A stretch of DNA of 64,000 bases from Botryllus schlosseri (lineage: Eukaryota). Both the position numbers and the translations under genes were made by a program. Shown piece after piece: positions 13,322 to 16,320 of the stretch (its first letter is position 1; the number at the start of each line of letters is the position of its first letter). The notes beneath the pieces are model-generated. The model was not told the DNA's origin. It searched no databases and worked only from the letters and a program-made list of their open reading frames with translations. The DNA lies in contig CM119371.1 in the NCBI GenBank assembly GCA_051294905.1, positions 8,310,001 to 8,374,000 on the forward strand. The letters run 5' to 3'.

Positions 13322-13903
13322 TCAAACATAAGTACAACAGTCATCACGCAATTCCACCTCGCCATCAAATTTAGTCGAGCCTCTTCTTATATTAGGTGTC
13401 GCATAACAGACATTACGAATATATTGCAACCCCTTCCGCTTGATGAGAAAAGGACACGCAGGATAAAACTTTGCATGCTCGAACCAGGGATCATCGCACG
13501 GCAACCAATTTTGAAACAGCCCTCCGCACGAGAAACACTTTAAATGATCCTTATAGCCCAAATAGAACAATCCGCAGTCTGCGAGCTCGGCTCCGGAGGT
13601 ATTTATATTATCCGGCCATCGCATGAATGTGCTTAGTCTACGAGCATACCGTGTCATGTTATAGAAAACTGGATCATTCAGCGGGGAGACAGTTACATCT
13701 CTATGCTTCGCATAGCATTCATAAATCTTTTCCCCTCTGTTATTTATCATAGCTTGGTACTGTTCAATGGGACCCATCCGAGTTTCATCTTCGCTTATTT
13801 CTATGCTACTTGTGGTACCGGTGCAAGCGCAGTTGAATGTAGCGTAATTTGTAGGATCCATACTACGCTTAGGTAGCGAATCGCTTTGGTCAATGTTCGA
13901 CAT
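13322..13903 (-). CDS. Inhibitor-of-apoptosis-like protein with a single BIR domain, no RING
   Basis: RLSTFMRWP...ELADCGLFYLGYKDHLKCFSCGGLFQNWLPCDDPWFEHAKFYPACPFL fits the BIR consensus with C-x2-C-x16-H-x6-C zinc ligands. Confidence 0.95.
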   Translation of the reverse strand: MSNIDQSDSLPKRSMDPTNYATFNCACTGTTSSIEISEDETRMGPIEQYQAMINNRGEKIYECYAKHRDVTVSPLNDPVFYNMTRYARRLSTFMRWPDNINTSGAELADCGLFYLGYKDHLKCFSCGGLFQNWLPCDDPWFEHAKFYPACPFLIKRKGLQYIRNVCYATPNIRRGSTKFDGEVELRDDCCTYV

Positions 13904-13940
13904 TGCTATCCGAATTGATATACTCTCATGATCAGTATGC

Positions 13941-13946
13941 TTTATA
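13941..13946 (-). promoter_or_regulatory. Candidate TATA box of the IAP gene
   Basis: TATAAA on the minus strand ~38 bp upstream of the ATG at 13903. Confidence 0.4.
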
Positions 13947-14365
13947 CAGATATTGAGCTATGCACCGTTGAAATATGTGCTTGGTACCGATCGAATGATA
14001 GGTCCCCTAGGTCGTATCACGGAAAATTAGAACGTCGACTGCTCACAGAAAAAGGCACGTAGCTCATATCCGTTCCTGGTACGTGTTATCAATAATTAGA
14101 ATGTTAGTAAGAATGCCACGAGTACAATCACGAGGTGATGATTAATACCTAAAAATGATTTACTTAACGACATCTTGATGCGGATTATTAATTTTAAAAA
14201 ATTAAACTATAGTGTATCTGAAATTAGTTTTACTTTACTGAGATTAGTTTTACTTTTGAACTAACTTATCTGTCGATACATTCATTTAATTACGATTCCG
14301 AGAAGTCGGATCGATTCCCGTAATATAACGATTCAGTGTGAACCTTATGTCTTATACTTTAGCTG

Positions 14366-14503
14366 ACACTTACTCAGTCTCATTGAAATAGCATTGTATA
14401 GTGTACGAGTTCATTTATTTCGAAAAAGAGTATAATATATCAATGATATCATTGTGCGTCATTGCATCGATTCACTTGCTGAAATCCTCCAGATTGATGT
14501 TTC
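14366..14503. repeat. ~140-bp direct repeat copy 2
   Basis: TACTCAGTCTCATTGAAATAGCATTGTATAGTGTA identical to copy 1, remainder diverged; AATAAA on the minus strand. Confidence 0.8.
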
Positions 14504-14681
14504 GATGTCGCTTCACGAGTTCCATTCTTGCATCCACAAGCAGCTATGCAAATCCACAGCTTAGATAACTAGGACTCTTGTATGTCATTAACATTATAGA
14601 CAGTCATTCGACGATATCCAACTGGCATTGATGCTTTCGATACAGCGCAGTATGTATAACGTCACGCTGATCAATTCAATT

Positions 14682-14960
14682 TCAACAATGGGACCCGCGC
14701 ACAATTATATGGCTGGATTTTCGCTGAATATTGACGACACCCACAAATCGAAAGATCTCTTTTTCCTGCACATCTATGATGCAATTATCCTTCCAATGAC
14801 TACGAATAACTTGAGATTCCGCAGGATTAATATCCGAATCAAATAATACGAGCGTATCTTTTCCAGCTTTCAAAACTTGCACTGACGCGTCCGCTCTATG
14901 TCGCAACACTACAATATGTGGCCATACAAAACGATGTATAGTTATTTTTTGTAGTACCAT
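14682..14960 (-). CDS. Conserved 92-aa protein of unknown function (homologue at 29209-29484)
   Basis: About 53/92 identical residues by manual alignment with the 91-aa ORF in the nested element; same start and stop positions. Confidence 0.85.
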   Translation of the reverse strand: MVLQKITIHRFVWPHIVVLRHRADASVQVLKAGKDTLVLFDSDINPAESQVIRSHWKDNCIIDVQEKEIFRFVGVVNIQRKSSHIIVRGSHC

Positions 14961-15478
14961 CCCTACGACTTATTTCAGATCGCAGTTTACTGAGTAGAGC
15001 TTAATACTAATACCTGCATAATTTTTTGCATGTCTAGAATAAGGCTAATTAAATCGATAGTAAAACGCCAGTGGCGACTAATAACGTTATAATGTAAGCT
15101 GCGGCGGTGCTACTATAATGTTAGGAGCTATTAAAGCCGAATACGCTGAAGTATAGCATAGATTTTGCATATAAAATGTATACACAAATTTCCTGTTAAG
15201 GGTAGGCTCTGCGAAGCTGCTTATGCCTCGATGATCATAGTACTTATGAGCTATTGGATAGCGCATATACAATGTATCATATAGAACTTCGTCACTTTCG
15301 GATAGTACATATACCCCTGGAATAGAACTTAGACGCTATAAAGATCGATGTTCGCCTACGAATTCTCGCTTTACTCATGTCGTATGCTCGATAAATTGTA
15401 AGTTGCGGCGAGCAACTCATTTTTAAAGTCCCTAAGACGCTATTGAAATGAACTCTGACTCGCTATTATCCTCAAACC

Positions 15479-16320
15479 ATGGAATTATCACGAGCATCAC
15501 CTTCGCTCACTGAAGAAAAGGATGAAATTACATCCGGAGCATATTCCTTGGCGAGGAATTATATCATGTACGAACTCGACGGCTCATGCGTTAAGGCAAA
15601 TACGAAAGCAGAGAGAACCTTACGGCGAGTTGGGGATGAAATGTTTGAGCGACACCGAACTATCGTAAACGCGCTCTCCAAACGTCTTCGCTATAGTGAT
15701 GTAGAAGTCAATGAAAAATATGAAGAATATTCACCCGACGAGCGAATGTTCCTGATGATAGCTGATGGAATTTTCAAAGATGCCCAAGAAAATTGGGGCA
15801 GGATTGTCTCCCTTTTTGTGGTCGCTAGCATTCTTGCTCGGAATAAGGAGGATGAACATCGCGGTGATCATATAGAAGGTATCATACAGACAGTTGGGAA
15901 TTACATTGGTAGTAGAAGACGAAAGTGGATAGCGCAAAACGGAGGATGGGTAAGCGATTTTACAAGCCTTACTAAGGATTTAGGAATTATTATCTATAGC
16001 TCGAGGTACTACGATCCCCAGAACCCTTATCATCCCTCGATAGGGAACCTTAGATTCCACCTTATAATTTTGTTCTCAACTTTTCCCACAAAGCACTGTA
16101 ATTTACTTTCCAAGCGCAGCGAACTTCGAATTACCTAACAAGTAGGCTACGCTAACTTTCTGTAAGATTTGGAAGGCTAACATTTTTATTATTGTTTCAG
16201 GACAGTTTTGTAGGATATTTCGATAACACAACATTCGGTAACAATAAAGTTTGGAAGAGTCTCATGTTTGCTGGAATTGGACTGATGTCTATTGCAATGG
16301 CATTAACACGACAGCGATAA
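15479..16320 (+). CDS. Bcl-2 family protein, 2 exons (15479-15949, 16201-16320), 196 aa with C-terminal membrane anchor
   Basis: BH3 LRRVGDEM, BH1 NWGRIVSLF, BH2 WIAQNGGW|DSFVGYF joined across a GTAAGC...CTAAC...TTTCAG phase-0 intron; exon 2 ends in LMFAGIGLMSIAMALTRQR. Confidence 0.93.

Follow-up and report, generated by a model that had tools for sequence, protein, structure and literature searches.

Maverick/Polinton-type elements and adintoviruses of animals are suspected but unproven viruses. One group of described systems is that of the adintoviruses, which combine an integrase, an FtsK/A32-type packaging ATPase and a virion module of the hexon/penton/adenain type, and in which homologues of Bcl2 and of inhibitor of apoptosis proteins (IAPs) have been observed (Starrett et al., 2021, PMC8502044). 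In Supplementary Fig. S2 of that paper, the label IAP is placed beside the maps of Mytilus and Pinctada, and the label Bcl2 beside those of Astyanax/Branchiostoma and Steinernema. A 2024 preprint of the same group (PMC11071296) states that anti-apoptotic homologues, candidate oncogenes or both seem to be encoded by most adintoviruses associated with mammals, and a baculoviral IAP is listed in a leafhopper adintovirus set (2026 preprint, 10.64898/2026.07.28.741253). Another group is that of the vertebrate Mavericks, for which 5'-(AGT)2//(ACT)2-3' ends and a perfect 6-bp target-site duplication (TSD) serve as criteria (Barreat and Katzourakis, 2021, PMC8097293). Here, we describe a Maverick/Polinton-type element in a 64,000-nt stretch of DNA (contig CM119371.1 of assembly GCA_051294905.1, positions 8,310,001 to 8,374,000 of the forward strand; hereafter the window, whose own numbering is used throughout), which carries both a BIR-domain IAP gene and a Bcl-2 gene between its terminal inverted repeats (TIRs).

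It is fairly probable, in our judgement, that this element is a young endogenous provirus whose IAP and Bcl-2 cargo would inhibit two steps of the intrinsic death pathway. The kind of system is already known, anti-apoptotic homologues having been published for adintoviruses, and no new principle is involved; new are the co-occurrence of the two genes on a single genome of 13 kb, a tunicate-type Bcl-2 that bears an intron, the lack of a polymerase and an apparently high copy number. Among large DNA viruses, African swine fever virus achieves a two-step block of cell death by one virus through A179L (Bcl-2) and A224L (IAP). Large DNA viruses with both genes have genomes more than 10 times larger, whereas the pair described here makes up 2 of ~13 genes. 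Compared with the adintoviruses, the element lacks DNA polymerase B (PolB), carries both cargo genes on one genome (a co-occurrence not visible in the text of Fig. S2) and has an intron-containing Bcl-2 gene whose product stands far from the Bcl2 of the lancelet adintovirus. An initial annotation, made from the letters of this locus, had treated the pairing as not known to be a standard feature of Polintons. This stands insofar as the literature search found no report of Bcl-2 and IAP on one PolB-less Maverick/adintovirus genome, nor of such an element in tunicates, and needs correction insofar as Bcl2 and IAP homologues have each been published (PMC8502044).

Boundaries of the element and position of the two genes

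The ends of the element and the two genes are located as follows.

12170..12175, unstranded: left TSD copy, CATGGA, by direct reading; the same hexamer lies beyond the right end
12176..12745 (inner edge approximate), plus strand: left TIR, starting with AGTAGT, from alignment to the reverse complement of 38320-39060
13322..13903, minus strand: single-BIR IAP gene, 193 aa, without RING, from the Pfam BIR match
15479..15949, plus strand: Bcl-2 exon 1, 157 aa, with BH3-like LRRVGDE, BH1 NWGR and BH2 NGGW
15950..16200, plus strand: predicted phase-0 GT-AG intron of 251 nt at the BH2 site (gtaagc...tttcag)
16201..16320, plus strand: predicted Bcl-2 exon 2, 39 aa and stop, with a hydrophobic tail anchor, aligning to the tail of a Styela protein (P0002, see below)
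38379 (approximate)..38964, minus strand: right TIR, terminating in ACTACT, from the same TIR alignment
38965..38970, unstranded: right TSD copy, CATGGA, by direct reading

The BIR gene (minus strand) and the Bcl-2 gene (plus strand) reported in the initial annotation are real and divergent, with Pfam E-values of 2.9e-18 and 1.2e-20 and 1,575 nt between them, and the span given for the pair, 13322..16320, runs exactly from the left edge of the minus-strand BIR open reading frame (ORF) to the stop of Bcl-2 exon 2. Self-comparison of the window yielded two inverted-repeat pairs, one inside the other. The outer pair consists of TIRs of ~570 bp and delimits a host element spanning 12176-38964; its arms show 2 mismatches in the outer 474 nt followed by two indels (94% over 593 nt by blastn), its ends read (AGT)2...(ACT)2, and a perfect 6-bp TSD, CATGGA, lies on both sides. 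Because both genes lie inside these outer TIRs bounded by a perfect TSD, they are cargo of the element and not its neighbours. They also adjoin the virion module, as had been proposed; this module begins at 16535, right of the pair, and its core genes are all on the plus strand. The near-identity of the TIRs and the perfect TSD further indicate that the insertion is young.

The inner pair belongs to a nested element of 13,437 bp, which splits the host element 183 nt past its last ORF. The initial size estimate of ~13 kb agrees with the 13,346 bp that the host element measures without this insertion, and falls short of the actual, split structure. With its end motif, its 6-bp TSD, TIRs within the range of 46-1,447 bp and a size within 12.7-24.6 kb, the element resembles the vertebrate Mavericks (PMC8097293), from which it differs in its host, probably a tunicate. 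It would have inserted through its own rve integrase and later been split by the nested element, which has the same end type.

Contigs of four runs (X1, X2, X4 and X17) were aligned to the window. The left flank up to 12205 is covered by seven X1 contigs without differences and at a depth of 6-8, as expected of a unique flank, whereas the summed word depth of X1 reaches 2,300-4,900 across 13.3-22.7 kb, cargo included (summed word depth, as the tool warns, does not equal copy number). The seven flank contigs and one X2 contig, which tracks the element to exactly 22911 and then diverges, support the boundaries independently, and overlapping contigs (X2 records 20 and 21) connect Bcl-2 exon 2 with the ATPase and integrase genes. 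These data bear on the proposal that the pair are host genes beside a virus-like insertion, or products of an assembly artefact, which is very improbable. It could appeal to the host-type intron of the Bcl-2 gene and to a repeat-rich region with a 6.2-kb inverted duplication. This duplication, however, is the nested element with a TSD of its own, the TIRs that enclose both genes are themselves flanked by a perfect TSD, the X2 contigs link Bcl-2 exon 2 to the ATPase and integrase, and the multi-copy depth extends over the cargo as over the core.

The 10-kb block 12746-22911 was also considered as a TIR-bounded unit in its own right. It has no TIRs and is the left part of the split element, and no further TIR pair bounding a 13-kb unit was found by self-comparison of the window.

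In the inner TIR, at 12520-12640, lies a stretch resembling a tRNA T-arm, GAATCGAACCTGG (plus strand), in which ARAGORN calls no tRNA; a SINE-like (short interspersed nuclear element) origin for part of the TIR is only an impression.

The Bcl-2 gene and its relatives

The Bcl-2 domain scores 74.4 bits in Pfam (cut-off, 31.4), and the gene is predicted to consist of two exons from its splice sites and its collinearity with P0002, the closest named relative (XP_039252627, "bcl-2-like protein 2 [Styela clava]"), a tunicate protein with 50% identity over 145 aa. The exon 2 peptide, a short linker followed by a hydrophobic tail, is 46% identical to P0002 residues 205-241 (E 8e-10), and this alignment starts directly past the GGW of P0002. 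The intron site is common to relatives, P0006 and several others (among P0004-P0011) reading GGWVS through the same site. The Styela protein shares with the element protein the BH3-like TLRRVGDE, NWGR, NGGW, the tail anchor and the intron site, whereas its 57-aa N-terminal extension is missing from the element protein; the Styela gene could be cellular or itself element-borne. In a 77-row alignment, W106, R108 and W150 are invariant, and N105, G107, G155, G156 and W157 nearly so.

A word-indexed protein search with exon 1 returned no match from 13 candidates, and an exhaustive HMMER search returned 262 Bcl-2 relatives at E<=1e-3, with P0002 at the top and only 17 of them at E<=1e-10. In a 68-row tree excluding P0003, P0005 and P0006 (<130 aa), the element Bcl-2 groups with P0002 and P0004 (SH-aLRT 98) on a longer branch (1.0 vs 0.37, ~2.7x). 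For Bcl-2, the phylogeny called for by the initial annotation thus puts the element protein with the Styela protein, from a tunicate. Since only 4 of the 29 relatives looked up have informatively named clusters (Styela bcl-2-like 2, Branchiostoma "anti-apoptotic protein NR13-like", lamprey bcl-2-like 2 and a Lamellibrachia hypothetical protein), the tree cannot be labelled by subfamily. Viral Bcl-2 models in BFVD, an A179L-type protein among them, are far weaker matches (best E 1.4e-3, 10-20% identity), with the lancelet adintovirus Bcl2 at rank 42 (E 0.71), and comparison of the alignment with viral contigs gave pattern matches and no relative.

The much weaker viral matches argue for an independent capture from a host, and the retention of the BH2 intron of the family argues for capture from host genomic DNA; the retained intron in a tunicate-type Bcl-2 would also imply nuclear expression with splicing. 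In our reading, the gene would therefore derive, at the DNA level, from a tunicate-type pro-survival host gene (NR13/Mcl-1-like), independently of other viral Bcl-2s, and would have evolved faster thereafter.

An AlphaFold2 model built from the 77-row alignment (pLDDT 90.4, pTM 0.84) shows seven helices in the helical-bundle fold with a BH3 groove that typifies the family, and its best fold match is the zebrafish pro-survival protein NRZ with Bad BH3 (TM 0.77/0.82, rmsd 1.8 A), next in rank being Bcl-2, Mcl-1 and Bcl-xL. The PDB sequence matches are headed by Mcl-1 (2e-10) and Bcl2l10/NRZ (2.4e-10), followed by A1 (2.2e-7), Bcl-2 (4.7e-7) and Bax (5.8e-7). We infer that the protein is pro-survival rather than pro-death: its nearest named and solved relatives are pro-survival, with Bok-type entries close behind. 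The latter would suit a different explanation, in which both genes are functional and do not form a two-step block of apoptosis, the Bcl-2 protein being Bok/Bax-like (pro-death, or active in endoplasmic reticulum calcium or autophagy) and the BIR protein acting in signalling or mitosis. Bok is pro-apoptotic; the top Atlas cluster for the element Bcl-2 is named Bok, chicken BOK is the eighth fold match, and the Bax E-value is near that of Bcl-2 itself. We nevertheless regard this explanation as quite unlikely, the best matches in both sequence and fold being pro-survival, as are, by name, the Styela, Branchiostoma and lamprey relatives. To our knowledge, characterised viral Bcl-2 homologues are overwhelmingly pro-survival as well.

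The single-BIR IAP gene

The BIR domain occupies residues 89-153 of the 193-aa protein (66.6 bits; cut-off, 22.9) and keeps its zinc ligands in the spacing CX2CX16HX6C, as seen in the translation and in the alignment to cIAP1 BIR3; the same spacing is found in cIAP1/XIAP BIR3. Among single-domain PDB matches, cIAP1 BIR3 is the closest (1e-25), followed by XIAP BIR3 (~5e-22), ML-IAP (~2e-21) and XIAP BIR2 (~5e-20). Overall, BIR3/BIR2 types range from 1e-25 to 5e-19, and BIR1 types reach 5e-14 or weaker. The W, DD and E of the motif W...DDPW.EHAK are kept in the cIAP1 BIR3 alignment, and its last W is conservatively replaced by F; the W, DD and E positions are those which we take to line the groove for peptides carrying an IAP-binding motif (IBM).

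Unlike cIAP1/XIAP, the element protein has a single BIR, lacks RING, CARD and UBA, and has F in place of the last groove W. No RING was found, BIR being the only Pfam domain across the 193 aa. In baculoviral and most cellular IAPs, a RING E3 domain is located at the C-terminus; without it, the element protein cannot act as an E3 ligase. The N-terminus comprises 75 aa, some of it similar to the linker that precedes NAIP BIR3, and a single-sequence AlphaFold2 model reached a pLDDT of only 30.3, too low for a fold search. The missing RING and the unexplained N-terminus would suit a role in signalling or mitosis, to which the proximity of the domain to the IBM-binding BIR3/BIR2 types, and not to BIR1 or survivin, stands opposed.

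A word-indexed protein search with the BIR kept 1 of 17 candidates (P0001) and, among longer proteins, 1 of 137 (P0153). P0001 is a sister of the BIR protein, 96% identical over the full 193-aa frame, with 8 differences and none at the zinc ligands. P0153 is a BIR-BIR-RING protein, whose RING-proximal BIR matches that of the element at 39%.

A proposed two-step block of cell death

Judging by their sequences, both genes carry features expected of working cell-death regulators. The Bcl-2 protein would most likely reside in the mitochondrial outer membrane via its tail anchor and sequester BH3 proteins or Bax/Bak. The RING-less, cIAP/XIAP BIR3-type BIR, in turn, would most likely bind N-terminal IBM peptides, its targets being the IBM of an initiator caspase or that of Smac/Reaper-type antagonists. 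Together, the two proteins would impose a two-step block on the intrinsic death pathway during expression of the element. Such cargo would be meaningful only in a living, defended cell and would thus constitute indirect evidence of an intracellular replication phase. In this regard, the element offers a compact, clearly bounded test case, with two death-pathway regulators of different classes on 13 kb.

The virion module and the missing polymerase

To the right of the pair, the following core positions were assigned.

16535..17152, plus strand: packaging ATPase, A32/FtsK type (Pfam Pox_A32 E 8.6e-9, 35.7 bits; cut-off, 22.8)
17188..17926, plus strand: a pair of small ORFs (99 aa; 112 aa) at the Maverick pm/pz position, by position only, with no Pfam/PHROG family
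17914..18912, plus strand: integrase, rve core and chromodomain (Pfam rve E 2.1e-14, Chromo E 2.4e-8)
19072..20600, plus strand: tandem pair of paralogous ORFs (269 aa; 240 aa) at the minor-capsid position, by mutual tblastn
20578..20949, plus strand: basic 123-aa ORF in the pw position, with no family
20999..22276, plus strand: putative major capsid protein, 425 aa, from a weak Pfam DJR-like_dom match
22273..22728, plus strand: 151-aa ORF in the protease position, with no Pfam match

Within this module, it is only for the ATPase and the integrase that the scores settle the assignment, the rve domain of the latter reaching 54 bits (cut-off, 32.6) and its Chromo domain likewise exceeding its Pfam cut-off. 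None of the 8 element ORFs compared with PHROGs gave a match. The tandem ORFs (19072-19881 and 19878-20600) are 19% identical to each other (E ~6e-10), have no Pfam/PHROG family and, standing where one minor-capsid gene is expected, may represent a duplicated penton-type gene. In the Atlas, the clusters nearest to the putative capsid ORF (score 0.98) consist of hypothetical proteins of eukaryotes, 24-30% of whose members carry PF21738, the family of the weak DJR-like_dom match; comparison of this ORF with viral and metagenome contigs gave pattern matches and no relative. The 151-aa ORF is possibly a clan-CE cysteine protease.

The gene order, atp-pm-pz followed by int-mcp-pw-MCP-pro with accessory regions at the flanks, is that of the vertebrate Mavericks, of whose 8 core positions 7 are filled, ppolB being absent (PMC8097293). 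The same paper reports core genes on one strand, as in this element, for Xenopus tropicalis only, and intact vertebrate Mavericks without introns, whereas this element has an intron in a cargo gene and its family a spliced antisense RNA (see below). The region upstream of the ATPase, which is the ppolB site in vertebrate Mavericks, is occupied by cargo. In our reading, the core set is kept except for the protein-primed PolB, and three cargo genes (the BIR and Bcl-2 genes and a further ORF, ORFa) would fill the place of PolB and the left accessory region.

Several of these results weigh against a functional provirus. The DJR-like_dom match of the putative capsid ORF (E 0.0095, 15.6 bits) is under the cut-off of 27, and the sole match of the 151-aa ORF, to the African swine fever virus S273R protease around G-x-HW, has a non-significant E of 0.53. 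PolB is absent: the element has no ORF of at least 110 aa beyond those listed in this text, and 0 of 65 stop-to-stop pieces (from 13.9-15.5, 22.7-30.3 and 36.2-38.4 kb) reach a Pfam cut-off. Because no PolB was found, the element fails the strict "self-synthesizing" definition of a Polinton, while its ends, TSD, integrase and ATPase are those of one. The lack of PolB and the multi-copy state of the family (see below) are as compatible with a genomic life, perhaps dependent on a helper, as with an infectious one. There are also genomes that have virion genes of the adenovirus class and no recognisable PolB and integrase (PMC11071296). The conclusion of the initial annotation that the pair points to a real infectious cycle is, accordingly, not supported for this copy, which is endogenous, without PolB and apparently part of a multi-copy genomic family.

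A virion module that looks intact while the polymerase is missing raises the question of helper dependence. As a conjecture, which we hold to be rather unlikely, a PolB-less Maverick lineage might have exchanged the polymerase module for a pro-survival cassette of host origin (Bcl-2, IAP and ORFa) and might spread, as a satellite of polymerase-encoding Mavericks, to the order of hundreds of genomic copies. The cassette would then keep a co-infected cell, or else a germline or stem cell, alive long enough for the element to be replicated and packaged with the aid of the helper.

Copy number, transcription and variation

The X1 depths given above lead us to read the element as a multi-copy genomic family, of the order of hundreds. 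Depth is higher still, at 11,500-33,000, over the left TIR and the 3' half of ORFa (12002-13100) and over 15551-15561 of Bcl-2 exon 1; these pieces apparently far outnumber the complete element and may occur as solo ends or as fragments. Under the labels of organisms B and C, runs X2 and X5 contain the element about as fully as the runs of organism A. This was considered as evidence of spread and rejected: the depth of the element relative to that of the adjacent high-copy repeats, roughly 1-3%, hardly differs between X2 and X1, and X2 lacks the unique flank. X2 may thus hold a trace of organism A or of a close relative, rather than an independent host.

Runs X4 and X17 were taken to contain RNA since only they show three canonical GT-AG joints; this is a guess, as neither is recorded as RNA. 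The joints (22535>21655, 21603>19118 and 18987>16659, on the minus strand) occur in both runs, which come from two studies, and not in the DNA runs X1 and X2, and define the following transcript.

22536-22562+, 21604-21654, 18988-19117 and 16658 downwards, minus strand: exons of a spliced antisense RNA, from contig joints in X4/X17

Because of these three minus-strand canonical joints, the family is considered to be transcribed and spliced, antisense to the virion genes. The depth of the spliced joints (24-59) is above that of the surrounding unspliced contigs. The RNA probably ends near the minus-strand AATAAA at 16190-16185, and the first long ORF past its last acceptor encodes 73 aa (16510-16289), antisense to the 3' end of the Bcl-2 gene; the RNA could be regulatory or encode a small protein. 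It shows nothing about the BIR mRNA. The transcription check proposed in the initial annotation thus turned up, as clear RNA, this antisense transcript and not the cargo mRNAs.

The left cargo region contains the following further features.

12806-12801, minus strand: AATAAA below ORFa, motif match only
12823..13365, minus strand: ORFa, 180 aa, with no Pfam/PHROG family, overlapping the BIR stop by 44 nt
13941..13946, minus strand: TATAAA, ~40 nt before the BIR start codon, by consensus only
14363..14503, minus strand: direct-repeat copy (84%) of the 3' segment 12748-12890, with an AATAAA of its own, by self-comparison
15337..15342, plus strand: TATAAA, 142 nt before the Bcl-2 start codon, by consensus only

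An AATAAA also follows the Bcl-2 gene (motif match only). The direct repeats 12748-12890 and 14363-14503, each with a minus-strand AATAAA, bracket ORFa and the BIR gene, and the second copy lies below a 92-aa minus-strand ORF (14682-14960). One X1 contig joins 12859>14548 at a depth of 71.5, which deletes ORFa and the BIR gene between the direct repeats, as would be expected from recombination between them.

This deletion is among the observations that suit another explanation, in which both genes are dead or dying passengers, that is, neutral relics of a past capture in a PolB-less, non-autonomous repeat family. The absence of PolB from the element and from the 65 ORF pieces around it and the high summed depth over the element relative to its unique flanks fit such a family. 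As to expression, no cargo mRNA was seen in the RNA-type contigs, the only contig of this type over the Bcl-2 gene (X4, 15583-16263) crosses the intron unspliced, and no joint for this intron is present among the 15 of 196 joints listed. As to variation, contigs of X2 differ from the window copy by 2.3-2.5% in the cargo and 0.75-1.4% in the core, a divergence about twice as fast, and 4 of the 6 listed Bcl-2 variants are non-synonymous; from these small, selected samples we lean towards weaker constraint on the cargo. Additionally, two fragmentary Bcl-2 relatives, P0003 (82 aa, 85% identity) and P0006 (61 aa, 80% identity), look, by their sequences, like more distant members of the same element family; as the sole such members found, they may be broken copies.

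Other observations speak against relics. In the window copy, all 13 ORFs of the host element are open, the splice sites of the Bcl-2 gene show no damage, neither the zinc ligands nor the BH motifs have been lost, and the insertion appears young from its TIRs and TSD. The sister P0001 retains the full BIR frame with unchanged zinc ligands, and the family is transcribed and spliced. Moreover, of the 19 best-supported ORF variants, 11 are synonymous, a sign that the family overall is under constraint, and the single listed BIR variant is synonymous too. On balance, we consider the passenger explanation unlikely, with an appreciable minority share of the probability, and continue to favor a provirus whose cargo would act on the death pathway.

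The nested element and other features of the window

The remainder of the host element is made up of the nested insertion and the right internal region.

22912..36348, unstranded: nested non-coding element, 13,437 bp, from self-comparison, TSD and end motif
36355..38378, unstranded: 2-kb internal region at the right of the host element, with internal repeats and no ORF of at least 110 aa

The arms of the nested element (22912-29157 and 30136-36348) are 99.2% alike over 6,246 nt, surround a ~1-kb spacer and consist in part of tandem subrepeats, whose periods are 32, ~121, ~185 and 21-103 nt. The element has the ends AGTAGT...ACTACT, and a perfect TSD, TTCGCT, lies at 22906-22911 and 36349-36354. 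None of its ORF pieces has a Pfam family above cut-off, and its inner parts reach X1 depths of 100,000-370,000, far above those of the provirus. It was inserted later than the host element, has the same end type and looks like a non-autonomous, foldback-like rider on the Maverick integrase.

Elsewhere in the window, Rfam and ARAGORN scans gave no match, and Pfam found no family, and hence no host marker gene, in 14 other ORFs. The CpG observed/expected ratio is at least 0.9 everywhere in the window, with no signal of methylation decay either way. In the left flank, at 9947-11470, inverted repeats of 66-100 nt, 72-81% complementary and 1.3-1.4 kb apart, adjoin very high-depth repeats at 8667-10667; this pair is probably a small unrelated transposon.

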